64,000 bases of DNA from an uncultured Bacilli bacterium (lineage in GTDB: Bacteria > Bacillota_I > Bacilli_A > RF39 > UBA660). This document shows positions 6,613 to 59,824 of this stretch, in pieces. Below the pieces are notes generated by a model. That model saw only the letters and a list, made by a program, of their open reading frames with translations, was not told the DNA's origin and did not search any database. Positions within the stretch are counted from its first letter, which is position 1, and each line of letters starts with the position of its first letter. A program made the position numbers and the translations under genes. The stretch is taken from positions 70,850 through 134,849 of the forward strand of contig CAKPLY010000001.1 of NCBI GenBank assembly GCA_934167825.1. Direction: 5' to 3'.

Positions 6613-7407
6613 ATGGATAAGATAATTGAAGCAAAGATATATTTACCAATAATATATATTGTAATTGGTTTTGTTTTATATTATTTATTAAAGAAAATAA
6701 ATGATAAGTTAAGTAAGAAGATAGTTATTAATAAGACAGGTAGTGATAAGAGAAAGAATACTATTATATCTCTTATTAATAATATTATTAAATATATAAT
6801 AGCAATAGTTATTGTACTTGCTATATTAAAGGTATATGGAGTAGATACTACTAGTATTTTAGCATCTTTAGGAATAATAGCAGTAGTAATTGGACTTGCT
6901 TTTCAAGATATTGTAAAAGATATGTTATCAGGTATTTCTATTATATTTGATAATTTATATGCTGTTGGAGATACTATTAAGATTGGAGATTTTACTGGGG
7001 AAGTTATTTCTATAGGAATTAAAAATACTAAGATAAAGTCTTGTTATGGTGAGATTAAAAGTATTTCTAATAGTCAAGTTACGGAAGTTATAAATTATAG
7101 TTTATATGATAGAACATTATTTATACCCGTTAATGTAAGTTATGATACTGATATTGAGAAGTTAGAGAAAGTACTTAATGAGGTTAAGGAAGAGATTAAG
7201 ACTGAAGATGGAGTAAAGAGTGAACTAGAGTTACTTGGAATAGATAGTTTAAATGATAGTGGTATTACATATATGGTAACACTTACTTGTAAGTATAGTA
7301 ATTCTTTTAGAATAAAAAGAAGATTACTAGGGTTAATTAAAAGTAAATTAGTTGAAAACAAGATAGAAATTCCATATAATAAACTAGATGTAAATGTAAG
7401 GAAGTAA
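6613..7407 (+). CDS. small-conductance mechanosensitive channel (MscS family)
   Basis: Three N-terminal TM helices, then VGDTIKIGDFTGEVISIGIKNTKIK, the MscS beta-domain pattern. Confidence 0.8.
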   Translation: MDKIIEAKIYLPIIYIVIGFVLYYLLKKINDKLSKKIVINKTGSDKRKNTIISLINNIIKYIIAIVIVLAILKVYGVDTTSILASLGIIAVVIGLAFQDIVKDMLSGISIIFDNLYAVGDTIKIGDFTGEVISIGIKNTKIKSCYGEIKSISNSQVTEVINYSLYDRTLFIPVNVSYDTDIEKLEKVLNEVKEEIKTEDGVKSELELLGIDSLNDSGITYMVTLTCKYSNSFRIKRRLLGLIKSKLVENKIEIPYNKLDVNVRK

Positions 7408-7412
7408 TAGAC

Positions 7413-7988
7413 ATGATGAAAAAAGAGATTTTTAAAAGAGAATTAGAGTATATTAGCGATGAAGGTATAAGAGAATCTACTGGTATTATGTTAGATTTAT
7501 TACCAGACTATTTCTATCAAATACCTGCTTCTTCGACAGGAAAGTATCACCCTAGGTTTGCAAGTACTGAATCAGGGTTAGTAAAACATACTAAAGTAGC
7601 GGTTAGAATTGCTAAGGAATTATTAGATAATCCTAGTTTAACTAATTTTACTTTAAGAGAAAAAGATTTAATTATTATGTCTATTATTTTACATGATGGA
7701 CTTAAGAATGGATTAGTAAAGGACAAATATACAAAGATAGATCATCCATTATTAGTATCAAACTACATAAAACAAAATAGTGATAAGTTAAAACTTACTA
7801 AGGAAGATTTAGAAATAGTAACAAAGGGTATATCATCACATATGGGTCCATGGAATAAGGATTATGATGGCAATATAGTACTTCCTACTCCTAAGACTAA
7901 GACAGAAAGATTTATCCATATGTGTGATTATTTATCTAGTAAGAAGTTCTTAGATGTAGAATTTGATAATTTAGATATAAAGTATTAG
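7413..7988 (+). CDS. HD-domain phosphohydrolase
   Basis: KYHP...VKHTK...ILHDGLK...SHMG is a histidine/aspartate pattern typical of HD superfamily proteins. Confidence 0.65.
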   Translation: MMKKEIFKRELEYISDEGIRESTGIMLDLLPDYFYQIPASSTGKYHPRFASTESGLVKHTKVAVRIAKELLDNPSLTNFTLREKDLIIMSIILHDGLKNGLVKDKYTKIDHPLLVSNYIKQNSDKLKLTKEDLEIVTKGISSHMGPWNKDYDGNIVLPTPKTKTERFIHMCDYLSSKKFLDVEFDNLDIKY

Positions 7989-7995
7989 ATTTTGG

Positions 7996-8024
7996 TTGAA
8001 AAAAGATAAATTATATGGTATTAT
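7996..8024 (+). promoter_or_regulatory. sigmaA-type extended -10 promoter of the 8223 surface-protein locus
   Basis: TTGAAA (7996-8001), 17-nt spacer ending in TGG, TATTAT (8019-8024). The architecture and the 14-nt ATATGGTATTATTT are shared with the promoter of the 58079 paralog. Confidence 0.65.
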
Positions 8025-8058
8025 TTATTTAGATAGAGATATGGAAGGAGGCCCCAAC

Positions 8059-8124
8059 ATGAATAGAATAAGTTTAGTTATTTATAACATTTATGCTATC
8101 GGGGGGGGGGCAATTAACATATAG
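8059..8124 (+). promoter_or_regulatory. candidate 21-codon leader mini-ORF containing a G10 tract
   Basis: GGAAGGAGG lies 7 nt upstream of ATG 8059. It encodes MNRISLVIYNIYAIGGGAINI with stop TAG at 8122-8124. An in-frame ATG also exists at 8041. Confidence 0.3.
8101..8110. repeat. homopolymeric G10 tract
   Basis: Ten consecutive G read directly from the sequence, flanked by C on both sides. Highly atypical for this AT-rich window. Confidence 0.95.
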
Positions 8125-8148
8125 AAATAATATAATAAAAGAAGGTAA

Positions 8149-8200
8149 AACTATAGATAAAATGTCTAGAAATAGATAGTTTTTGTCTATAGTTTTTTTG
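8149..8200 (+). terminator. terminator/attenuator hairpin just upstream of the 8223 gene's SD
   Basis: AACTATAGA (8149-8157) pairs with TCTATAGTT (8186-8194). There is an inner TCTA-GAAA-TAGA mini-hairpin, then a T-run to 8199. AAAGGAG and ATG 8223 follow. Confidence 0.55.
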
Positions 8201-8222
8201 TTGTCTAAAGGAGTTAGAAGTT

Positions 8223-10139
8223 ATGGAAAATGTAGAAGTAAATAATAAGAGTAAAATAGTAAAACTAATGATAATAGTAATTATCTTAATAGTAATAGCA
8301 TTAGTAGGAACTTATGCTTTAACTATATGGAGGAGTCAAGAAAACACAGAACTTACTTTACGTATTGGGGATATCTCAGGAATATATTGTGAAACAGGAG
8401 ATCCAGTTAATATAAGTAATCTAGGGCCTATATTTGATTATGAAATAGATGGTGAAGTAATAACTTTTAGTATAGATAATCAAACTAATGAAGTAGTAAA
8501 AACTTCTGCTACATTTAATATTACTACAATAACAGATAATTTAAAAGAAGAAAGTTTTAAATATAAATTACTTTATAGTACAAATAATACTACTTATGAA
8601 TTATTAAAAGAAGGTAATTTTAAAGATGTTACAAATGGTAGTAAAATAGAATTATTAGAAAACTATGATGTTGCTATATCACAAAAAATACATTTTAAAT
8701 TAATAATCTATATAGATGGTAATATGGAAAATCCTATAACTATGCAAGGAGGTAGTTTGGTGGGATATCTTACTGCATGTAAAATTGTTGAAGTAGATAA
8801 AAGTGGTGCTAATGCACCTGCTTTAACAGATGCATTAATCCCTGTAATGTATGATGAAACAACATCTACTTGGGTAAAAGCAGATTCAAGTAATAATGAT
8901 TTATCCTGGTATAATTATGGTGAAAAGAAATGGGCAAATGCAGTGTTAGTATCATCAACAAATCGTAGTACTTACCAGTCCGCAAGTGCAGGTACAACTA
9001 TAACAGATGCAGACATCTTAGCATTTTATGTATGGATACCGAGATATAAATATAAAGTATGGAATATAAACAAAGTAATGGCTACAGATAGTTATAGTGC
9101 ACAAACTACAGGTATAGATATAGTATTTGAAGCAGGTACATCTTCAACTGGTACAATATCTTGTACATATAGTTATGCTGCACCATCAAGTACTGCCGGA
9201 AGTCCCAATGAAACATGTACAGGTAGTAATGGAGATTATTATACACATCCAGCATTTACGTTTGGTAATCAAGAACTAACAGGATTTTGGATGGGAAAAT
9301 TTGAACTATCAAGTAGTAATCCTGCGACTGGTTCATCTTATGGCGGGGGATACTCTACATCTTTAACACCAAGAATACTACCAAATGTAACATCATGGAG
9401 AAATAATATAGTATCAAACTATTGGAAAGTAATATATGATATGCAAACAAGTAATAATATATATGGACTTCCTACATCAAGAACAAATGCTGATTCACAT
9501 ATGCTTACTAATATGGAGTGGGGAGCAGTAGCATATTTAACTAACTCAAAATATGGAAGATGTACAAATGGAAGTTGTACAGAAGTATCAATTAATGGTT
9601 ACGGAGAAACAAGTAATTATACAACTATGACAGGATGTGGTCCAATATCAAGTGGTAGTACAAGTTATAGTACTACATGTAACGCATATAATACAACTTT
9701 AGGACAAACAGCATCTACTACAGGTAATATATATGGAATATATGATATGTCAGGAGGGGCAACTGAATATGTAATGGGTAATATATCAAAAACAAACGGA
9801 ACAACATATACATATTATGCAGGAAATGCAGGAACAAACTTTACATATAGTACAGATACTGCAAAATATCTAATACCTTATGCATATGGAACAACATATA
9901 ATGACCAAACAGCATATAATAGAGGAAGATTAGGAGATGCAACAAGTGAAGTAGTATCTAGAGCAAGTTATGGATGGTATAATGACTACACGTCTTTTCC
10001 TGTCTTTGGCGATTCTTGGTTTCTTCGTGGCGGCAATTTCGGCGCTAGTAGTGAAGGTGAACCCTTCTCTTTCTTCGGCAATTCTGGCATTAATAACCAC
10101 TCTTGTTCGGGGCGTGCTGCTCTTTCTATTGCATCCTAA
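8223..10139 (+). CDS. N-terminally anchored surface protein with an FGE-sulfatase/C-type-lectin-like C-terminal domain and a compositionally aberrant C-terminal patch
   Basis: N-terminal TM helix. Motifs THPAFTF..ELTGFWMGKFELS, NMEWGAVAYL, GIYDMSGGATEYVMGN and FLRGGNF...GRAAL resemble the FGE/SUMF1 fold. It is a paralog of 51428..54073, sharing ILAFYVWIPRYKYKVWN and TSRTNADSHM.TNMEWGAVAYLTNSKYGRC. Confidence 0.8.
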   Translation: MENVEVNNKSKIVKLMIIVIILIVIALVGTYALTIWRSQENTELTLRIGDISGIYCETGDPVNISNLGPIFDYEIDGEVITFSIDNQTNEVVKTSATFNITTITDNLKEESFKYKLLYSTNNTTYELLKEGNFKDVTNGSKIELLENYDVAISQKIHFKLIIYIDGNMENPITMQGGSLVGYLTACKIVEVDKSGANAPALTDALIPVMYDETTSTWVKADSSNNDLSWYNYGEKKWANAVLVSSTNRSTYQSASAGTTITDADILAFYVWIPRYKYKVWNINKVMATDSYSAQTTGIDIVFEAGTSSTGTISCTYSYAAPSSTAGSPNETCTGSNGDYYTHPAFTFGNQELTGFWMGKFELSSSNPATGSSYGGGYSTSLTPRILPNVTSWRNNIVSNYWKVIYDMQTSNNIYGLPTSRTNADSHMLTNMEWGAVAYLTNSKYGRCTNGSCTEVSINGYGETSNYTTMTGCGPISSGSTSYSTTCNAYNTTLGQTASTTGNIYGIYDMSGGATEYVMGNISKTNGTTYTYYAGNAGTNFTYSTDTAKYLIPYAYGTTYNDQTAYNRGRLGDATSEVVSRASYGWYNDYTSFPVFGDSWFLRGGNFGASSEGEPFSFFGNSGINNHSCSGRAALSIAS

Positions 10140-10251: not shown

Positions 10252-10569
10252 ATGGAGGATATGATGAGTGATATTGAATTACTAAGTATAGATATTGGTG
10301 CACTAGAAAGTGCTATAGATAGTCTAAATAGATATATTGGTGAATTAAGTACTGAAGAGGGTAGTTTAGAATATATTAAGAATACTGCTCCTACATTTTG
10401 GAATGAAGGTGCTACTGAAGATATTAATTCATATTGTATAGAACTTGGAAAAAATATAAGTAGTGTTGATGCTCTTATACAGAATTTACAAGGATATATA
10501 AGTACTTTAAGAACACTAATTGCTGAAATTAATGAAGCAAGAAAAAGAAAGTATGCTGGTGAGGTGTAA
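10252..10569 (+). CDS. small alpha-helical protein with a central FWNEG motif (possible WXG100/ESAT-6-like)
   Basis: About 100 aa and predicted all-helical. FWNEGATEDINSY is paralogous to FWNEGVGEDVSSY in the 10907 gene. The true start may be ATG 10261 or 10264, after GGAGGA. Confidence 0.6.
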   Translation: MEDMMSDIELLSIDIGALESAIDSLNRYIGELSTEEGSLEYIKNTAPTFWNEGATEDINSYCIELGKNISSVDALIQNLQGYISTLRTLIAEINEARKRKYAGEV

Positions 10570-10571
10570 TA

Positions 10572-10907
10572 ATGCAAGTAAAAGTTAGATTAAACGATTT
10601 AAGACAAACTAGTAATAGAGCAAATGAATTAAATGTTGAAGTTAAGAGTTTATTTGATAGAACTACAAATAATTTAAAAGAAATTTGTCGTATTGTACAA
10701 TGTAGTGAACTAACTAGTGCAACAAATAGTATTAATGAAGAAATTGAAACTATTAATAATGAAATAAATGAATCTTTAAGAGAAATAAATAATTTCTTGA
10801 TTGAGCAAATTAATTACTATAGTATATCTAATGAAAATGCTACTAGTGCAATAAATAAATTAAGTGAGCAAATTACTAATAGTTTTAGTACGGGAGGTGG
10901 CAATTAA
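10572..10907 (+). CDS. small alpha-helical protein, partner of the WxxG pair
   Basis: GGTGAGGTG SD. 111 aa, Asn/Glu/Ile-rich heptad-like sequence with no Trp motif. Tightly packed between the two paralogs. Confidence 0.55.
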   Translation: MQVKVRLNDLRQTSNRANELNVEVKSLFDRTTNNLKEICRIVQCSELTSATNSINEEIETINNEINESLREINNFLIEQINYYSISNENATSAINKLSEQITNSFSTGGGN

Positions 10908-11365
10908 TGGCAACTTATGGTAGAGAACAATTAATTAAATTAAACCCTGAAAGATTAGAGGAATATACTGCTAATTTAGCAACTTTAGTACAACAATTGT
11001 GTGCAAGAGCAGATGAATTAAAAACTGTAAATAAGACTGCTCAAATGTTTTGGAATGAAGGTGTTGGGGAAGACGTTTCAAGTTATGGAGTATCTTTGGA
11101 TAAAAACATTAATTTAATTAAAGGGAAGTTATCAGATACATTAAATGATTATGTTAAAACAATGAATGTACTTGCTTCAACAGTTAGAAATATTGCTGGT
11201 CAAAATGTTGCTACTGGTGGAACAACAACTTCTTTAGGAGGTACTAAACCTTCTTCTCAAATAGATGAACTTAATAATTTTTATTCATCATTTCGCCAAT
11301 TTGATTCTAATACTACAAATAAATATAGAAATCCTAATGTTTTTGGATCTACTGGAAAAATGTAA
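10907..11365 (+). CDS. small alpha-helical FWNEG-motif protein with a Gly/Thr/Ser-rich C-terminal tail
   Basis: Its start overlaps the previous stop (TAATG) and GGGAGGTGG serves as SD. The helical N-terminal ~95 aa are paralogous to the 10252 gene. Confidence 0.6.
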   Translation: MATYGREQLIKLNPERLEEYTANLATLVQQLCARADELKTVNKTAQMFWNEGVGEDVSSYGVSLDKNINLIKGKLSDTLNDYVKTMNVLASTVRNIAGQNVATGGTTTSLGGTKPSSQIDELNNFYSSFRQFDSNTTNKYRNPNVFGSTGKM

Positions 11366-11375
11366 TGATAATATA

Positions 11376-11410
11376 ACACATAAGTTAAATATTTATGTGT
11401 TTTTTTATTT
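11376..11410 (+). terminator. rho-independent terminator
   Basis: ACACATAA (11376-11383) pairs with TTATGTGT (11393-11400) and is followed by a T-run. Confidence 0.7.
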
Positions 11411-11422
11411 TTTTTAAACTTT

Positions 11423-11472
11423 TTTCATTTTTTTTCGCTAAAATGATTTTCAATATGGAATATATATAATGA
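11423..11472 (+). promoter_or_regulatory. 50-nt conserved promoter-like element, copy A
   Basis: TTTCATTTTTTTTCGCTAAAATGATTTTCAATATGGAATATATATAATGA is 48/50 identical to the reverse complement of 42575-42624. It ends in TATAAT, 46 nt upstream of ATG 11518. Confidence 0.6.
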
Positions 11473-11517
11473 GAGAGTTAATTATATATATTTTTATTTT
11501 GAAAGAAGGAGTGAAAA

Positions 11518-12609
11518 ATGTTTAAAAAAGTATGTAAAGTGATGGTAGTATTTTTGTCTTGTTTATTTATGAATGAGGTTAAGGCAGATGAGTGGACTAC
11601 TAAGGAATTAGAAGGAGATGCTGTTATTAAAGAAATTAGATATAGATATTATTATCTAGTTAAGAATGGAGAATATAAAAGAGTGGATGAAATGGGTAAT
11701 TATTCTTATAGTGATAAGAATGATATTAAATATGGAGAGTTTAGTAGTTGGACAAATAGTCCTATAACAGAGTATGATTATTTAGATATAGAGTATGGTA
11801 AGAAATATGAATATCAAGAGTTATTACCTGCGCAATATATTAAGATAGAGAATGTAACTGATAGTAATATAAGTATTAATGATATAGAAACATATAATTT
11901 AAGTGTAAAGTTAAATCATAAGATATATTCTTGCACTTTATGTAATAGTGATAAGAATATTATATATCCAAATGGTAATATGATTATATATATGCCTATG
12001 AGTGTACTTATTAAGAATCTAACTTTTAATTTTACTAATGATTCAAATAGTAATTTTGAGATTTATTATAGTTTTGATAGAGCGTTTAATAAGATAGTTG
12101 CATCCACTTTAGGAAATAATACGGTATTTTCTTATAAATATAATAAGGCATATAAGCTATATGAAAACTATTCAAATACATTTGTTGGATATAATATTAA
12201 TGTTGATGAATTTATTAAGGTAATATCTGTTAGTGATGTATGTAGAGCAAGAGAAATATATGATTATAAATATAATTTAGATAAGGTGTATTTTGGTACA
12301 ACATATTATAAAGATAAGAGTGATATTGATGTTAGTACTACTGATTTATCTATTGATGATTTATATATGGATGAAAACGATTATCAAATATATTATAAGT
12401 ATTCAAGTGATGTAGGAAGCGGTGATAATAAGAATAATAATGATAATAATACACCAAGTAATATAATACCAATAAATAGTCCTAGTTTAGTTAAGACTGG
12501 TAATTTTAAACTCAAGAATACTAATTATTTAATTACATATATATTGCTATTATTACTGGTTACTTTGCTATTCATAAAGAGAATGAATAAAAAGAGAAAT
12601 TTTAAATAA
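11518..12609 (+). CDS. secreted, probably sortase-anchored cell-wall protein
   Basis: Signal peptide MFKKVCKVMVVFLSCLFMNEVKA. C-terminal PSLVKTG (an LPXTG-like variant) followed by a hydrophobic stretch and a KRMNKKRNFK tail. Confidence 0.7.
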   Translation: MFKKVCKVMVVFLSCLFMNEVKADEWTTKELEGDAVIKEIRYRYYYLVKNGEYKRVDEMGNYSYSDKNDIKYGEFSSWTNSPITEYDYLDIEYGKKYEYQELLPAQYIKIENVTDSNISINDIETYNLSVKLNHKIYSCTLCNSDKNIIYPNGNMIIYMPMSVLIKNLTFNFTNDSNSNFEIYYSFDRAFNKIVASTLGNNTVFSYKYNKAYKLYENYSNTFVGYNINVDEFIKVISVSDVCRAREIYDYKYNLDKVYFGTTYYKDKSDIDVSTTDLSIDDLYMDENDYQIYYKYSSDVGSGDNKNNNDNNTPSNIIPINSPSLVKTGNFKLKNTNYLITYILLLLLVTLLFIKRMNKKRNFK

Positions 12610-51427: not shown

Positions 51428-54073
51428 TTATGAGGCAACTGTGAGTACGGCGCGGGTTGAAAATAAACTTGGAGGGAATTGCTGTCCTTGCATATAGCCG
51501 TTACTGAAATGTGTAAAAAAGATTCCAGCACTTGCTCCATTTCTGATTGCTCCCCCACGATTAAACCAAATTGAACTAACATATACATTATCTCCGTTCC
51601 ATCCGGTTTCAGTAGATAACACTACTTCACTTGTTGCATCTCCTAATCTTGCTCTATTATATGCTGTTTGATCATTAGTTGTTGTTCCATATGCATATGT
51701 TGTTATATATTTTGCAGTATCTGTACTATATGTAAAATTAGATCCTGCAGCTGCAGCGTAATAAGTATATGTTGTGCTTTTCTTGCTTGATGCATTTCCC
51801 ATTGTATGCTCATGAGCACCGCCTGACATATCGTATACTCCCGTAATATTACCTGTAGTAGATGCAAGTGCTCCTTTAGCGCCGTTATATTTATTTGCTG
51901 CAGTTGTGCATGTTGTACTAGAAGAACTATCTGCTTCAGCATCCGCGCCTATTCCTGTTGTAAAGAAACTGCAATTATTTATTGTTACTTCTGTACAGCT
52001 TCCATCTGTACATCTTCCATATTTAGAGTTAGTTAGATATGCTACTGCTCCCCACTCCATATTTGTTATCATATGAGAGTCAGCATTTGTTCTTGATGTT
52101 GATAGTCCATATATATTATTACTTGCTTGCATACCATATATTACTTTCCAAAAGTTAGATGCAGGATTTGCTCTCCAGCTTGTTACATTAGGTATTATTC
52201 TTGGTGTTAGTGATGTACTATTTCCTCCACCACTTGTAGTTGATGGTGAAGAACTTGATAATTCAAACTTACCCATCCAAAAACCTTTTAGTTCTTGGTC
52301 GCCAAAAGTAAATGCTGGGTGTGTATAATATCTTGTGCTAGAAGAGTCTGTACAGTTTTCTGCAAGTTCGTTTGCTAAGTTAATTCCTCCTGCAGAAGTA
52401 TCAACATTAAAGTTATATGTACAACTTATTGTACCAGTTGATGATGTATCATCTTCAAAAACTATATCTATTCCTGCTGTTTTAGCATCATATGTAGAGT
52501 TTCCTATTTGTTTACTCATATTCCATACTTTATATTTAAATCTTGGTATCCATACATAGAATGCTAAGATATCAGCATTTGCTATAGTTGTTCCTGCAGT
52601 AGAACTAGAATAAATTGCTCTTGAATTAGTTGTAGCTTTACCTGAAGCAAAATTATAATAAAGTTTTAGATTATCACATACTATACCACTACCACATACT
52701 GAAGTATTTGTTACACTATAATTACTTGCTACTTCTGCAGCAGTTAAAGCATCATTATATACTATAAATCTTTTTATTGTTCCACCAAAATTACCAGAAC
52801 CAGTTGGTCTTTTACCAATAAATGAAGAAGTAGATGATCCCCAAGTCCAATAGTTTACTGAAGAACTTGCAGATAATTTTTTTCCATTTAAATAGACATC
52901 TAAATCACTAAAACTACGATATACGATATCTACAGTATAAGTTGTATTTATAGATAGTCCACTTCCTCCTACTAAGAAAGTTTTAGGTTGTGCTTCTCCA
53001 TTACCTCCTGCTACAATAAATTCTGTAGCATTGTTATATATACCAAGAGCTGCTTTGGTATGGTAATCTCCAAAAATTACTTGATTTTCTTTTGAAGTTG
53101 TAGTAAATGTTACTGAGTATGTTGCTGGGAATGTTGCTCCAATATTTGAAGGTAGTTCTACATAAGTACTTGCATCATTTGTAATATTTAAACTGCCTGA
53201 AGAAATTGTTGTACCTACTAGTTTTCCAATATTGTTGTTTCCTGATAAGTCATTTGCATATGTAGTACCTTCACTTACTAATACTGCATTTGCCCATTTC
53301 TTTTGGTTATAGTCATACCAACCGTAAGTAGATGTAGAACTTGTAATATCTGCTTTTACCCAGTTAGAACCATTATATACTACTGGTATTAATCCATCTG
53401 TTAAAACTGGATAGTTTGCTCCACTATTATCTATTTTTTCAGTATATCTTGACATAGTATCACTTGCTTCAGCACTTATTAAAGTAGATATAAGTTCTCC
53501 AGATATTGGATTAGAGCCATCTACTGCGCTTGAATCTAACCATATGTATACTTTGTAATATGTTTGATAAGGGTTTAGTTCTATATTTGTAACTAAAGAA
53601 AATACATCATTTATTTGTCTATCTTTAAAGTTACCTTCTGCTAGTAGGGTTTCAGTAGTATTAGTAGCAGTATAAGTAGTTATTGCCCACTTAACTGTTT
53701 CACATTTAGCAATATTAGCATTATTAGTACTAGTACCATCTTTAGTTTGTAAATCTAATATTTTCATAGATAACTGACCATATATAGTTTTAGTTACTGT
53801 TGCTTTTTTCCAAAATTCTATAGTGGTACTTATACCTGAAGTATAATTATCTCCAAGAGTTAATGTTACATTATCTGTAGATAATATTGGATTACCATGA
53901 TTATATATTATTAATCCATCTAATCCTTTACTAATAGTTAAATTAACATTAGTGTTATCATCATTACTATTCCATAAATAAAATGCGTATGATATACTAA
54001 GTGCTAAAAGAATAAATCCTATTACTCCTAAAATAGTACCATATATTTTTCTTTTCTCTAAATTTTTAAACAT
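51428..54073 (-). CDS. N-terminally anchored surface protein: paralog of 8223..10139 with an inserted LamG/concanavalin-like domain and its own aberrant C-terminal patch
   Basis: Shares the N-domain, DNSGANYPVLTDGLIPVVY...KKWANAVLVS, ILAFYVWIPRFKYKVWN, YYTHPAFTFGDQELKGFWMGKFELSSS, NMEWGAVAYLTNSKYGRC, GVYDMSGGAHEHTMGN and NRGG...TRAVL. The ~200-aa insert ends in GGTIKRFIVYNDALTAAEVASNY, a LamG_3-like pattern. Confidence 0.8.
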   Translation of the reverse strand: MFKNLEKRKIYGTILGVIGFILLALSISYAFYLWNSNDDNTNVNLTISKGLDGLIIYNHGNPILSTDNVTLTLGDNYTSGISTTIEFWKKATVTKTIYGQLSMKILDLQTKDGTSTNNANIAKCETVKWAITTYTATNTTETLLAEGNFKDRQINDVFSLVTNIELNPYQTYYKVYIWLDSSAVDGSNPISGELISTLISAEASDTMSRYTEKIDNSGANYPVLTDGLIPVVYNGSNWVKADITSSTSTYGWYDYNQKKWANAVLVSEGTTYANDLSGNNNIGKLVGTTISSGSLNITNDASTYVELPSNIGATFPATYSVTFTTTSKENQVIFGDYHTKAALGIYNNATEFIVAGGNGEAQPKTFLVGGSGLSINTTYTVDIVYRSFSDLDVYLNGKKLSASSSVNYWTWGSSTSSFIGKRPTGSGNFGGTIKRFIVYNDALTAAEVASNYSVTNTSVCGSGIVCDNLKLYYNFASGKATTNSRAIYSSSTAGTTIANADILAFYVWIPRFKYKVWNMSKQIGNSTYDAKTAGIDIVFEDDTSSTGTISCTYNFNVDTSAGGINLANELAENCTDSSSTRYYTHPAFTFGDQELKGFWMGKFELSSSSPSTTSGGGNSTSLTPRIIPNVTSWRANPASNFWKVIYGMQASNNIYGLSTSRTNADSHMITNMEWGAVAYLTNSKYGRCTDGSCTEVTINNCSFFTTGIGADAEADSSSSTTCTTAANKYNGAKGALASTTGNITGVYDMSGGAHEHTMGNASSKKSTTYTYYAAAAGSNFTYSTDTAKYITTYAYGTTTNDQTAYNRARLGDATSEVVLSTETGWNGDNVYVSSIWFNRGGAIRNGASAGIFFTHFSNGYMQGQQFPPSLFSTRAVLTVAS

Positions 54074-54176
54074 AAATAATCACCCTACTTATATCTTAAT
54101 ATCTAAATATTACTTTATCATAAATTGAGAGAAAAGTAAATAATTTTAATACTTCTTTTTAGATTATTTTTTATAT

Positions 54177-55932: not shown

Positions 55933-55961
55933 ATCCCACGAAGGATATTCCTTCATGGGAT
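55933..55961 (-). promoter_or_regulatory. conserved 12-bp stem hairpin just 3' of the 359-aa gene, copy B
   Basis: On the minus strand ATCCCATGAAGG-AATAT-CCTTCGTGGGAT. One pair is G.U on the sense-strand RNA but C.A on the opposite strand. Followed by TTTATAAAA. Confidence 0.6.
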
Positions 55962-55967
55962 ACTCTG

Positions 55968-57038
55968 TTACATAGATACAGTATATGGATCATCAAATGT
56001 ACCTTCTCCTCCAGTTACTAGGACATTAGATTTTAGATAGAAGGTTGGACGGATGGTGTGGCAAAAACGCACGGTGTTGCTACTGACATACCCATCGGTA
56101 TAGACGTTGAAGGCACTATTGGTACTAGATCGTGGTGTTATTGTCCATTCATATCCTTTATATAACCAGTTTTTATTTACGTAATATTGTGATGATGCTG
56201 TAGTTGTTGCGGTATCTGCAAAGTAACTACTAGCATATAGATAATCTGATACGTACATTAATCCAACATTTGCAGTTGTAGTAGAATCATACGCTCCACT
56301 ATTAGCACTCATACAGTTTGTGGTATCTGTACTTAATCCTCTTTCACACAAGTAAAAATTTTGTTTGCTATATCCATTTCCACTGTATCCTTTTAGATAC
56401 CACGTTACTTCTTCGATATAGTTTCTATATGTATCATTTATTCCGTATCCTACAATATCACTGCAAGAAAATGTTTTGTAATCGTTATTGTTAAAGTAAT
56501 ATGTCCAGTTACTACATGCACCATAAGTGGAAGAAGTATTAGTTTTATTATAGAAGTATTCATTTAATATAACATTTGCACTTGCTTTTACTCCAGTTGT
56601 ATTTCCTGTCCAGTCGTTTTTATAACTAGAGTATGTACCTGAAGAGTTTGTAGAGTTATACACTCCCCAAGAACCAGAGTATAATACTCTACTTCTAATT
56701 AGTTTAACTAGATATTCTCCAGTTTTACCATGACTATTAGAATCAAATACTCCAATTATTCTATATAATTCATTATTAAATAGAACATAGTTACTTGGAT
56801 CTGCTCCACGATATCTATAATCGTGGTATTTAGTAGTACTATCAGTGTCAGTATAACTATTAGTTTTACATACTCCTGTTCCTCCAGCATTACATGCTGA
56901 AGATGTTTCTAAACTAATTACTTTATCTGCTAGAGTTGTACTTACTGCATATGTTTGGTTAATAATTTTAGGTATAATGATCGCAAGTATTCCTAATATT
57001 ACAATAGATATAGATATAATAGTAATTTTCTTATTCAT
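55968..57038 (-). CDS. anchored surface protein, short paralog of 58079..59692, with a DUF1566-like hypervariable C-terminal patch
   Basis: N-terminal TM helix. About 300 aa are near-identical to the C-terminal part of the 537-aa paralog, except for 56052-56132. ATG 57038 is preferred over 57047. Confidence 0.75.
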   Translation of the reverse strand: MNKKITIISISIVILGILAIIIPKIINQTYAVSTTLADKVISLETSSACNAGGTGVCKTNSYTDTDSTTKYHDYRYRGADPSNYVLFNNELYRIIGVFDSNSHGKTGEYLVKLIRSRVLYSGSWGVYNSTNSSGTYSSYKNDWTGNTTGVKASANVILNEYFYNKTNTSSTYGACSNWTYYFNNNDYKTFSCSDIVGYGINDTYRNYIEEVTWYLKGYSGNGYSKQNFYLCERGLSTDTTNCMSANSGAYDSTTTANVGLMYVSDYLYASSYFADTATTTASSQYYVNKNWLYKGYEWTITPRSSTNSAFNVYTDGYVSSNTVRFCHTIRPTFYLKSNVLVTGGEGTFDDPYTVSM

Positions 57039-57269
57039 TTTCAACATTCCTTCTTTCTTTAATTAATATATTATCAAGAATATTATTTAACTTATCTTTT
57101 AAATAATATTCTTCATACTTATTATCTTCATATTCTTTTTTTATTACCTCTAAATTATCTAAAATAATATAATTAATATGTAATTTTTTTAGTGTATTTA
57201 TTTTCTTTTTATTCTTAACATTTTACTTACTTCGTCATTATATATTTTTAATATCTTCCCATTTATAGA

Positions 57270-57620
57270 TTATTCACTGGATTTCATCCAGTCCTCAATC
57301 ATTTTTATTATTTCCGCGAGGCGTTTTGAATAATTATGTAATTTTTTTTCTGTTATATATTTTTTAGTGTAAGCACGTTCTAATAGAAAATCTATTATAC
57401 TTAATCTTGCAATTATTTGTGTTTGTACTGCTTTTTTATCTTTTTCATTAGCTGTTAAGGTTGCGGTGTACACAAGTAGCAATACATTTATTTCACATTC
57501 TTTAAAATATTCACGATTGAAAAGGTCCTTTTCCGGTACATTTTCAAATAATTTTTCACTATCTAATATAAATTTCTTTATACAAGATATTATTTTAAAC
57601 TTATCTTCATTGTAATTCAT
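57270..57620 (-). CDS. four-helix-bundle protein (23S rRNA IVS protein / DGR Avd-like family)
   Basis: 116 aa. NVPEKDLFNREYFKECEINVLLLVYTA....KK...Q.IIARLSIIDFLLERAYTKKYITEKKLHNYSKRLAEIIKMIEDWMKS follows the Avd/TIGR02436-type pattern I remember (..P..EK..L...i......ll.....A ... l..L ... kyIs...y..l...l.EI.KMi.gW). Confidence 0.6.
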   Translation of the reverse strand: MNYNEDKFKIISCIKKFILDSEKLFENVPEKDLFNREYFKECEINVLLLVYTATLTANEKDKKAVQTQIIARLSIIDFLLERAYTKKYITEKKLHNYSKRLAEIIKMIEDWMKSSE

Positions 57621-58010
57621 CTTCTATTACCTCAATTAATTTTTCTAAGATAGAAATATCTTCTGCTTTATTTATTTAATTTTCTATTCTATCTACTCTT
57701 TGTTTTATATCTTTATATTCAAGTGCTTGTTTTAACACTTTGTTATAGTTATTAAAATTACCATATTTTTTATGATCATAATGATCATTTTTATCTACTA
57801 TTTGATAATTAATTTTTTATCTTCAAGTGTATTTATTACTTTGCTTAGTGCAGTTTTACGGAAATCCTACTTTGTTATCTATTAGTGTTTTATAACCAAA
57901 TAGGTAATTTAATATTATTGCACTATCGTTATATGTATTATAAAATTTGCCAATTTTATATAATGTTATTGTTGCATCTATTTCTTTGTTTCTTGTTTTA
58001 GTTTTGACAT
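57607..58010 (-). pseudogene. frameshifted small gene with a MutS-domain-I-like N-terminus
   Basis: Pieces in three frames read MSKLKQETKK / IDATITLYKIGKFYNTYNDSAIILNYLFGYKTLIDNKVGFP / KTALSKVINTLEDKKLIIK / QIVDKNDHYDHKKYGNFNNYNKVLKQALEYKDIKQRVDRIEN / INKAEDISILEKLIEVIEDELQ. LYKIGKFY..Y.DSA...VGFP..AL...I..L aligns by eye with MutS LFYRMGDFYELFYDDA...AGIP.HA...YL.KL. Only one 73-aa piece (57856..58077) appears in the ORF track. Confidence 0.4.
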
Positions 58011-58032
58011 TGTTGTGGCGTTCCTTTCGATT

Positions 58033-58062
58033 GTCCCACGGAGGCTCGTTCCTCCATGGGAC
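58033..58062 (-). promoter_or_regulatory. conserved 12-bp stem hairpin just 3' of the 537-aa gene, copy A
   Basis: On the minus strand GTCCCATGGAGG-AACGAG-CCTCCGTGGGAC. It differs from copy B by a compensatory G-C to A-T pair change and has the same G.U position. No T-run follows. Confidence 0.6.
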
Positions 58063-58078
58063 TTGTTTAATAAACATT

Positions 58079-59692
58079 TTATACTGCTAGTATGTATGGG
58101 TCACTTATAGTTCCGCTTCCTTTCTCAATACTGATTATAGATTTTAGATAGAAGGTTGGACGGACAACGTAGCCATAGTACGCGAAATTAGGGTAGACAT
58201 TCCCAGTGTATTGAATGCAGATGACGTGATTGGCGCCAGTAGAGTGTGGTGTTATTGTCCATTCATATCCTTTATATAACCAGTTTTTATTTCCGTAATA
58301 TAGTGATGATGCTGTAGTTGTTGCGGTATCTGCAAAATAACTACTAGCATATAGATAATCTGATACATACATTAATCCAATATTTGCAGTTGTAGTAGAA
58401 TCATATGTTCCATTATTGGCACTCATACAGCTTGTGGTGTCTGTACTTAATCCTCTTTCACACAAGTAAAAATTTTGTTTACTATACTCATTACTTCTAT
58501 ATCCTTTTAGATACCATGCTACTTCTTCAATATAATTTCTATAAGTATCATTTATTCCATATCCTACTATATCACTGCAAGAAAATGTTTTGTAATCGTT
58601 ATTATTAAAGTAATATGTCCAGTTACTACATGCCCCATAAGTGGAAGAAGTGTTAATTTTATTATAGAAGTATTCATTTAATATAACGTTTGCACTCGCT
58701 TTTACTCCTGTAGTATTTCCTGTCCAATCGTTTGAATATCCAGAGTATGTACCTGAAGAGTTTGTGGTATTATACGCTCCCCAAGCACCTGCATACAATG
58801 GATTTGCCATGATCAGTTTGATTAAGTATTCTCCTTCTCTACCATGAGAGTTAGAATCAAATACTCCTATTATTCTATATAGATCATTATTAAATGATAC
58901 GTAATTATTTGGTTCCGCTCCACGATATCTATAGTCGTGATATTTAGTTTCTCCGTTTTCAGTGTAGGAGTTTGTTGCACATACTCCTGTACCTCCAGCA
59001 GCACACGCTGAAGTGGAAGCAAGATTCATTATGGTTTTAGATGCTGTAAGAGGTCTTACAAGGGCTTTTTTACTTTTAGTAGATAATTCTATTTTGATAT
59101 TACCACTTATTGTTTTACCCATTAAACTAGAGATATCTTGGTCTATAGTACAAGTAGTTACATCTCCAGTACATTCTTCACTTATCCAAATAAATAATGT
59201 ATAAGAGTCTGCAGTACTAGAGTTAGATGGTAAATCTTGTTGTATTGGAGTAAGTACCATTCTCTTATTGATTTGAGCATCAAAATCATAAGAGAAGTTA
59301 CCACTTGACAATTCAGTATTATTTTTATATAATCTCCATTTTAATAATTTATGATGTGCTAAAGTATCCATAGTTAAATCAGTTAAACTAACATCATAAA
59401 TTATAGGTATATCGGTAGGATTAGAACTAGCACCTTTAACAGTAAAGTTTGCTTTTAATACTTTACTATTTGTAGCACTAGAAGTAATAGTAGTATCTAC
59501 TACGGGTTCTAGTTTACTTGATGGAAGTGTTACACTTCCAGTATAAACTACATTATAATTACCACTACCAATATTAATACCTATATCAGTTCCTGTTGCT
59601 AAAGTATATCCTACATATAAAAGTATTATAAAAGCAAGAATTAGAGCAAATACTTTAATATTATTTTTAATAAATTTATTTATATTTTCCAT
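58079..59692 (-). CDS. anchored surface protein with an N-domain shared with the FGE-like family and a DUF1566-like hypervariable C-terminal patch
   Basis: N-terminal TM helix. The N-domain (LKWRLYKNNTELSSGNF...YTLFIWISE) resembles those of 8223 and 51428. The C-terminal ~300 aa are paralogous to 55968..57038. Divergent patch at 58163-58246. Confidence 0.75.
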   Translation of the reverse strand: MENINKFIKNNIKVFALILAFIILLYVGYTLATGTDIGINIGSGNYNVVYTGSVTLPSSKLEPVVDTTITSSATNSKVLKANFTVKGASSNPTDIPIIYDVSLTDLTMDTLAHHKLLKWRLYKNNTELSSGNFSYDFDAQINKRMVLTPIQQDLPSNSSTADSYTLFIWISEECTGDVTTCTIDQDISSLMGKTISGNIKIELSTKSKKALVRPLTASKTIMNLASTSACAAGGTGVCATNSYTENGETKYHDYRYRGAEPNNYVSFNNDLYRIIGVFDSNSHGREGEYLIKLIMANPLYAGAWGAYNTTNSSGTYSGYSNDWTGNTTGVKASANVILNEYFYNKINTSSTYGACSNWTYYFNNNDYKTFSCSDIVGYGINDTYRNYIEEVAWYLKGYRSNEYSKQNFYLCERGLSTDTTSCMSANNGTYDSTTTANIGLMYVSDYLYASSYFADTATTTASSLYYGNKNWLYKGYEWTITPHSTGANHVICIQYTGNVYPNFAYYGYVVRPTFYLKSIISIEKGSGTISDPYILAV

Positions 59693-59734
59693 AATTTATT
59701 ATCACATACCCTATCTATTTTTATATCTATTAAA

Positions 59735-59763
59735 ATAATACCATATTTTTTATATTATTTCAA
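59735..59763 (-). promoter_or_regulatory. sigmaA-type extended -10 promoter of the 58079 gene
   Basis: On the minus strand TTGAAA (59763-59758), 17-nt spacer ending in TGG, TATTAT (59740-59735). Homologous to the promoter at 7996-8024. Confidence 0.6.
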
Positions 59764-59795
59764 TTATGTTGTGTAAAATATTTTAATAAATTTAA

Positions 59796-59824
59796 AATAA
59801 CGTTGCTAAATGTGCAACGTTATT
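59796..59824 (-). terminator. hairpin terminator downstream of ruvA and the small lipoprotein ORF
   Basis: AATAACGTTGC-7 nt-GCAACGTTATT, a perfect 11-bp stem with A/T-rich flanks. Confidence 0.65.

Follow-up and report, generated by a model that had tools for sequence, protein, structure and literature searches.

What are two paralogous genes doing around a broken gene and a small intact one, all read in the same direction, in the chromosome of an uncultured bacterium of the class Bacilli? The question is raised by a 64-kb stretch of one genome (contig CAKPLY010000001.1 of assembly GCA_934167825.1; the whole stretch is hereafter called the window), in which the G+C content is about 26% and the housekeeping and sporulation genes are of the type expected of a low-GC Firmicute. 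A first-pass annotation had proposed here a decayed diversity-generating retroelement (DGR), whose reverse transcriptase (RT) and template repeat (TR) were deleted or replaced. We found every element of its gene layout in place and on the minus strand, as are all features of the cassette, which occupies a chromosomal site, from RuvA to RNase J, common to the window and to conspecific strains. In our view this region is, with high probability, a dead copy of a chromosomal DGR of the type that includes a small MutS-like (MSL) gene, with both RT and TR deleted. The element belongs, in degenerate form, to the MSL-type ("Architecture D") DGRs already published and is ordinary biology, which does not overturn the current understanding of DGRs. 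Annotators would do best to treat the pair of paralogous surface-protein genes, together with the small genes that they enclose, as one defunct DGR unit.

Intact cassettes and the deletion in the window

A comparison of synteny, as suggested in the first-pass annotation, identified relatives with an intact cassette at the same site. In two such loci, L020 and L022/L023, the gene order of the window (RelA, Dtd, an AI-2E transporter, Ddl and RuvA through to RNase J) is preserved and the flanks are 93-98% identical; they carry in order a target gene of 537 amino acids (aa), MSL (138 or 152 aa), Avd (116 aa), an RT of 365 aa recognised by Pfam RVT_1, a TR, a further gene that we call orfX (97 or 116 aa) and a second target gene of 357 aa. 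The inference of a decayed DGR is thereby borne out, since L020 and L022 have MSL-Avd-RT-TR-orfX at exactly the same locus. A scan of a genome collection for related loci, in which the best Avd identity was 58%, added nine loci (L009-L017) with the same gene order in metagenome-assembled genomes (MAGs) of other uncultured gut Bacilli and Clostridiales. The usual order assumed at first, target-accessory-TR-RT, does not apply to this family, as the relatives show target-MSL-avd-RT-TR-orfX-target instead.

The RT of the orthologous loci, 364-365 aa long, possesses the YMDD and IGxxxNQ motifs and matches the PHROG family 'Reverse transcriptase' (E 8e-56). In the intact relatives its start is overlapped by the Avd stop codon, and a TR of about 76 nt directly follows its own stop codon. 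Mismatches between this TR and the cognate variable region (VR) of a target are almost confined to TR adenines: 14 of 29 adenines against 1 of 47 other positions for L020-B, 14 of 30 against 0 of 46 for L022-B and, broken down by base for L017-A, 12 of 24 A, 0 of 24 C, 1 of 20 G and 0 of 23 T. The two VRs within one strain likewise differ at 18 of 31 adenine sites and at only 1-3 of 45 positions elsewhere. Such adenine-confined mismatches in cognate TR/VR pairs indicate that the cassettes of the relatives are genuine DGRs that diversify both flanking genes. The intact unit would consist of target A (with VR-A and a hairpin), MSL, Avd, RT, TR, orfX and target B (with VR-B and a hairpin). By analogy with the Bordetella phage element, the RT together with Avd, and presumably with MSL, would copy the TR RNA into cDNA with misincorporation at template adenines, and the cDNA would then replace the VR of about 80 nt at the 3' end of each of the two flanking genes.

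The gene that we call orfX is a conserved basic open reading frame (ORF) of about 96 aa with a pI of 9.4 (L020 9096-9389, L004 2971-3261), which presumably has a role in the element. In nine of nine genome loci, as in the conspecific ones, it occupies the interval from the TR to the second target; its stop codon overlaps the start of target B, and it has no match in Pfam or PHROG. The sequence between the TR and orfX is conserved across species and may be a structured part of the DGR RNA. An Rfam scan of the intact L020 and L022 cassettes returned nothing credible, which places the TR-flanking RNA outside the curated RNA families.

Set against these relatives, the window has lost about 1.38 kb between two copies of the 12-nt repeat AAGAAAATAAAT. 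Aligned with L002, it matches up to position 10427 and resumes at 11801 (10428-11800 lost); aligned with L020, it matches up to 7829 and resumes at 9213 (7830-9212 lost). The two blastn segments share 12 nt, window 57196-57207 (minus strand), which are the deletion junction and hold a single copy of AAGAAAATAAAT. The RT-containing strain L002 has two copies of this repeat, one in the 5' end of the RT gene and one in orfX, of which the window has a single one left; the loss is a classic deletion between short direct repeats. It removed the RT with the exception of about 22 decayed codons, the entire TR and the first 39 codons of orfX. On the minus strand at 57208-57262, tblastn and nucleotide alignment recover a frameshifted remnant of the RT 5' end, with about 18 codons upstream of the junction repeat (by tblastn, residues 8-26 of the L020 RT, 19 residues in all, match window 57257-57201), and its frameshift is common to the allele L018. 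At 57031-57195, also on the minus strand, lies the 3' remnant of orfX, which together with the junction repeat represents its last 58 of 97 codons (residues 40-97 of L020 orfX match window 57207-57034 by tblastn, with 96.6% protein identity) and whose end overlaps the start of target B.

The interval 57048-57269 had been described as an AT-rich spacer without similarity to either variable patch. This description stands, but the spacer is not anonymous, being made of the fused RT 5' and orfX 3' remnants. It matches none of the template regions of the relatives, and weak blastn matches to those regions occur only in the two VRs. Our searches for an RT and a TR covered the 64 kb of the window, where tblastn and blastn detected no RT ORF elsewhere and no TR. 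When the window was scanned specifically for a TR, with sequence motifs, with an adenine-tolerant profile and by blastn with the TR regions of the relatives, the two VRs alone came up. The window copy is thus devoid of RT and TR, the two defining components of a functional DGR, and has kept Avd, the hairpins and the VRs at the 3' ends of the target genes.

One might object that the frameshifts are homopolymer errors and that the RT was lost to assembly collapse, all the more so as some frameshifts of the related contigs fall in lysine-rich, A-rich stretches, two of them in the RT of L002. We consider such an artefact highly improbable. The assembly of the independently assembled run ERR7747140 (L001), which could come from the same sample, is 100% identical over window 56544-58275 (1,732 nt), including every lesion and the junction. 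A complex +1 lesion in the window MSL is common to L002/L003, another lesion is a base substitution to TAA, and L018 and L019 carry different RT deletions at the same place. The identity with L001 and the frameshift common to another strain argue that the MSL lesions are real and not read errors.

The MSL pseudogene and its Avd neighbour

The broken gene is an MSL (MutS-domain-I-like) pseudogene at 57607-58077 on the minus strand, for which three-frame translation and alignment to intact L020/L022 reveal four lesions. It had been noted at first sight that at least four frame pieces must be joined and that the last one overlaps the Avd ATG; we count four pieces, at 58077-57859 (with a TAA at 57856-57858), about 57858-57817, about 57815-57679 and, after the TAA at 57676-57678, 57675-57607. 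They are read in frame 0, in frame 1 and in frame 0 again, up to the in-frame TAA. Set beside its intact orthologues, the gene shows a +1 change at 57859 (CCTGAAA to CCGTAAAA), which is the complex change mentioned above (TG to GT plus an A), a -1 at 57816, a TTA to TAA nonsense mutation at 57676-57678, and an ATG beside the ribosome-binding site (58010-58008) that is out of frame with the MSL body. The MSL stop (57607-57609) and the Avd ATG (57618-57620) are arranged so that the genes overlap by 14 nt, and an overlap of MSL stop and Avd start is also present in those loci of the relatives that were inspected. In the scenario that we favour, MSL would have gathered the two frameshifts and the nonsense codon and lost its in-frame start after the 1.38-kb deletion, with Avd left as an intact, orphaned ORF.

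The assignment of this gene to the mismatch-binding domain of MutS, made initially by eye, agrees with our profile and structure searches. Once repaired, the window MSL scores 22.4 bits on Pfam MutS_I (PF01624), above the gathering score of 20.6, and intact orthologues reach 22.9 (L006) and 21.2 bits (L004). For the intact orthologue P0012, which is 88% identical and whose AlphaFold model has a pLDDT of 88, the top 50 Foldseek matches in the PDB are all MutS/MSH proteins, aligned on domain I. The best PDB sequence match of the MSL family profile is domain I of MSH6, across GKFY...GFPE, and this domain superposes on the MSL model with a root-mean-square deviation (rmsd) of 1.5 A over 61 columns and 30% identity. 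MSL thus shares with MutS/MSH domain I the fold, the GxFY...GFP motif and its invariant Phe (F27 in the MSL alignment). The Glu of the MutS Phe-X-Glu motif is, as we take it, usually replaced by Asn in MSL (FYN). Unlike MutS and MSH, MSL is a stand-alone protein of about 138 aa, composed of domain I plus a C-terminal helical hairpin, without connector, clamp or ATPase domains. To our knowledge, this accessory protein is experimentally uncharacterised; for its study, dozens of family sequences are now available, together with a confidently modelled structure and an operon context that is conserved. The first-pass annotation was right to name MSL as a published DGR accessory gene: in the survey of Wu et al. 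2018 (PMC5758913), MSL ('MutS-like') genes of 112-283 aa are reported for 16 of 372 DGRs, always with avd, and define Architecture D, and one of them is placed in a Legionella DGR.

A more distant MSL-Avd-RT DGR was observed in another organism with about 23% G+C (L024-L027), in which MSL is 36% identical and is separated from the target gene by the TR. This DGR has a clean adenine-specific VR/TR pair, and its target ends in a C-terminus of the same WW.SSP...W.V.G....FRP type. The MSL-Avd-RT triad thus extends beyond the family of the window.

The small intact gene, at 57270-57620 on the minus strand, encodes a four-helix bundle of 116 aa with a pI of 8.4 (9.0-9.3 in its orthologues) and is preceded by its own ribosome-binding site, GAGG. 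The Avd of known DGRs is a basic protein that forms a homopentamer and binds both RT and nucleic acid. Its identification as Avd draws on the ORF list, hidden Markov models (HMMs), AlphaFold/Foldseek and synteny. The DGR Avd profile is the best match in each of three HMM libraries, as the first-pass annotation had anticipated in naming the Avd family: PHROG 'Avd protein of DGR' (E 1.8e-9), Pfam bAvd (PF22296; E 1.9e-6, 28.7 bits against a curated cut-off of 40) and NCBIfam DivGenRetAVD (NF033474; E 1e-7, 32.2 bits against a cut-off of 80), the latter two with full-length coverage. As the Pfam and NCBIfam scores lie under their cut-offs, membership of the Avd family is not proven by sequence alone. 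A PDB sequence-profile search with the Avd alignment did not find Avd, and a comparison of folds was needed instead. The AlphaFold model, built on ten homologues, has four helices and a pLDDT of 90, and its top Foldseek matches in the PDB are the Avd chains of the Bordetella phage DGR (8ub7, 8ub8, 4dwl), with a TM score of 0.82-0.86, an rmsd of 1.4-2.0 A and 17-18% identity for 8ub7 C/B/E and 4dwl_D.

A sub-threshold profile score leaves room for another reading, in which the bundle belongs to the non-DGR 23S-rRNA intervening sequence (IVS)/S23 family and the MutS-like fragment is unrelated debris that happens to lie next to it. S23/IVS proteins (PF05635, TIGR02436; structures 2gsc and 2rld) do have a fold in common with the window protein and are themselves good structural matches (TM score 0.73-0.84). 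They rank below the Avd chains in the Foldseek list of the window model, however, TIGR02436 is a weak match (E 0.034), and the window protein is clearly higher on the DGR-specific Avd models, so that the top matches by structure and by HMM are specifically to DGR Avd. The family is small (11 clusters), with orthologues 39-86% identical, and Avd directly precedes the RT, overlapping or abutting it, in L002-L006, L009-L017, L020 and L022; an RT adjoining and co-oriented with Avd is true of the orthologues but not of the window. In every relative that retains an RT, intact or frameshifted, the orthologues of both small genes stand in one overlapping operon with the DGR RT and the TR. The reading of coincidental neighbours is refuted by this synteny, and we give it practically no credence.

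Variable regions and RT-defective alleles

Target gene A (58079-59692, minus strand) encodes a protein of 537 aa that has a membrane anchor at its N-terminus and a variable domain at its C-terminus, and its orthologue precedes MSL in each related cassette that includes this flank. Target gene B (55968-57047, minus strand; 359 aa) is a shorter paralogue, whose orthologue follows orfX in all related cassettes. Neither protein has a match in Pfam or NCBIfam. Identity between the two genes is 82-84% outside a patch of about 80-85 nt close to each 3' end, which an alignment of at least five alleles shows to be scrambled among alleles between invariant flanks. On the minus strand, this patch corresponds to VR-A at 58162-58246, between the motifs TATGAATGGACAATAACACCA and GTCCGTCCAACC, and to VR-B at 56051-56132. 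The conserved GTCC at the 3' edge of the VR is kept in VR-A and reads ATCC in VR-B, by a G-to-A change; VR-B has also undergone a 3-nt deletion. To judge from the peptide pattern ...AFNV..G......GVRP, the VR domain may resemble the DUF1566-type 'CLec2' class.

Each target gene is followed by a hairpin on the minus strand: after target A, at 58033-58062, a 12-bp stem with a 6-nt loop (GTCCCATGGAGG-AACGAG-CCTCCGTGGGAC; -12 kcal/mol, z -5.1), and after target B, at 55933-55961, ATCCCATGAAGGA-ATA-TCCTTCGTGGGAT (-11.3 kcal/mol, z -6.3). GC-rich hairpins of 10-13 bp are found in this position, past the stop codon and about 100 nt beyond the VR, after 16 target genes (L002, L009, L010, L012, L014-L017, L020 and L022), with many compensatory changes between loci; hairpin B itself differs from hairpin A by a compensatory change of G-C to A-T. 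A T.G wobble at the same stem position in the stems inspected implies that it is the sense strand or the RNA that folds. The absence of a T-run after the hairpin sets it apart from typical terminators. Together with the GC-rich 3' end of the VR, the hairpin is a candidate element of target recognition. The Bordetella phage element (BPP-1) reportedly also has a GC-rich hairpin past its VR (work ascribed to Guo and colleagues, 2011); in the family of the window the distance from VR to hairpin is about 100 nt, and the stop codon falls in between.

With RT and TR lost, the two VRs of the window are expected to be frozen and to change by ordinary mutation alone, and the variable proteins of this strain would be frozen alleles that are not actively diversifying. 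Their sequences are consistent with this expectation. Compared with every available TR, including that of the sister allele L018, VR-A and VR-B show 12-18 mismatches at 44-47 non-A positions, and 16 of 43 such positions distinguish one from the other, whereas in strains that have kept their TR the cognate VR-TR pairs show 0-5 non-A differences and the two VRs of one strain 1-3. The L018 TR was specifically considered as the source of the window VRs and rejected, with mismatches at 12-13 of 44 non-A positions. Either the adenine-only signature was overwritten by ordinary mutation after the loss, or these VRs were written from a divergent TR that has since been lost. Since the window VRs are without the adenine-only pattern, the loss of RT and TR is probably old and not recent.

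Close relatives show at least four different ways of inactivating the RT, which has suffered three deletions, each of them distinct, and two sets of frameshifts. The window and L001 have the deletion that corresponds to L002 10428-11800. L018 has a different one (about 10416-11430), which spared TR and orfX, and an MSL nonsense codon of its own, and L019 has lost RT, TR, orfX and MSL altogether. L002/L003 carry two RT frameshifts, and L004/L005 carry one, with the conspecific L009 intact. These lesions form a mosaic: an MSL lesion of the window recurs in L002 and its RT 5' lesions recur in L018, a pattern suggestive of recombination within the cassette. From target A to Avd (57196-59823), identity to conspecifics is only 88-93%, against 96-98% for the neighbouring housekeeping genes, and dS for Avd is about 0.37 among the cassette alleles (89% nucleotide identity). 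The cassette is thus a hot spot of divergence or recombination. A literature search for DGR remnants was uninformative. The within-species series at this one site, from intact cassettes through frameshifted RTs to three RT deletions, offers material for studying how and why gut-bacterial DGRs switch off, and which roles Avd and MSL may have beyond helping the RT.

Besides the sub-threshold Avd scores, several observations weigh against a dead element. The Avd ORF is intact with its ribosome-binding site and has a dN/dS of 0.17-0.30 against other alleles with a deleted or broken RT, so that Avd may still be in use in the window strain. Neither hairpin has decayed, nor have most of the conserved VR flanks. 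Our inspection covered 64 kb of the genome, and a second copy elsewhere is possible, since two cassettes (L011 and L016) are present in one related MAG. All this would fit an element acting in trans, an alternative that the first-pass annotation had offered: a second DGR elsewhere in the genome would supply the RT and a compatible TR, and Avd and both VR-plus-hairpin targets would still contribute to diversification. The Avd ORF is, besides, intact in all five RT-defective allele groups (window/L001, L018, L019, L002/L003 and L004/L005), four of which have a broken or lost MSL. Several DGRs in one genome are, moreover, reported for about 10% of the DGR-bearing complete genomes (PMC5758913).

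We nevertheless judge this alternative to be quite unlikely. As shown above, the window VRs are without the adenine-only signature, both against all available TRs and against each other. VR-A is identical in the one independent sample with the window allele (L001), VR-B has suffered its 3-nt deletion and the G-to-A change in the GTCC edge, and MSL has decayed. The 3' ends of the TRs of L011 and L016 differ, so cross-servicing is no obvious design of the family. A dN/dS of 0.17-0.30 is no proof of kept function, because divergence among the cassette alleles (dS about 0.37) far exceeds that of the flanks, where differences amount to about 3%; the low value could largely pre-date the loss of the RT, and most of the constraint on Avd may do so. 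We infer that no RT elsewhere in the genome services the VRs of the window, and that the loss of RT and TR has left a dead cassette.

The repeat at the MSL start, known systems and neighbouring genes

In this family MSL starts within a simple-sequence repeat, the period of which is not a multiple of three (L020, at about 6990-7015, L022, L002, L004, L009, L010, L012, L015 and the window). Among the close relatives the unit is a 13-mer, CAACACAACAATG, with an ATG in each copy, and the number of units is 1 in the window and L018, 2 in L020, 3 in L022, 4 in L004 and 5 in L002, with as many as 8 to be deduced from called proteins. In other species this place is taken by (ACAAT)x8, (CAACA)n or a different 13-mer. 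In the window, a degenerate ribosome-binding site (AAAGGAA) plus a single and itself degenerate unit, GCCACAACAATG, is found at 58008-58027 on the minus strand, with the ATG of the unit out of frame. Because of the period, gain or loss of a unit would shift the ATG proximal to the ribosome-binding site in or out of frame with MSL; the first ATG past this site is in frame at 2, 5 or 8 units alone. P0028 and P0029 are identical save for one block of 39 nt, that is, three units.

This repeat looks like a slipped-strand on/off switch. One might speculate that DGR mutagenesis in this family of gut Bacilli is gated by a contingency switch at the MSL repeat, which would be hypermutable and of which the window would represent a locked-OFF end state, with Avd kept for a residual or RT-independent role. 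The overlapping frames of MSL, Avd and RT might then pass the effect on to the translationally coupled downstream genes, and the system would cycle in the population between diversifying and frozen states. We regard this proposal as tentative and, on balance, rather doubtful. A literature search for phase variation tied to DGRs found no paper connecting the two.

The closest known systems are those of Architecture D in the survey of Wu et al. 2018 (NAR 46:11, PMC5758913). Like them, the window copy is chromosomal, has a small MutS-like gene accompanied by avd, and bears its VRs at the 3' ends of target genes; it differs in having no RT, no TR and an MSL that is a pseudogene. The consulted part of that survey makes no mention of the arrangement seen in the family of the window, that is, MSL-avd-RT-TR with the TR downstream of the RT, orfX and two flanking targets, nor of the repeat at the MSL 5' end. 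The BPP-1 DGR (mtd-avd-TR-brt) resembles the family in the four-helix bundle of Avd and in the adenine-specific transfer from TR to VR, which the relatives of the window display. Unlike the family, it has no MSL, a single target and a TR between avd and the RT gene.

Elsewhere in the window there is a second pair of paralogues, at 8223-10139 on the plus strand (638 aa) and at 51428-54073 on the minus strand (881 aa), whose N-termini are similar to those of the DGR targets. The 881-aa protein matches Laminin_G_3. The C-termini of both resemble classical C-type-lectin VRs (W..RGG...AG.F....R), and the copies diverge sharply only there. No TR was found for this pair. The 881-aa gene was considered as an active DGR target and discarded, as the last 500 nt, comprising the gene end and 80 nt past the stop codon, are 100% identical in L002, with no sign of diversification. 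The two genes may be relics of another DGR.

Strains also differ by inserted genes of the defence type beside the cassette (between 59823 and 59831, and near 54170). L002 and L022 have a gene for a 471-aa Schlafen/AlbA_2 ATPase between a 39-aa ORF and target A, which is absent from the window and from L020, and L022 has an AbiEi/AbiEii pair after RNase J. Further away in the window, the intergenic segment 18141-18264 contains three tandem copies of CTAAAAAAGCGGCGATTCCGGCCAACCTAAACAGGAACC, spaced by about 38-39 nt and unusually GC-rich for this genome.

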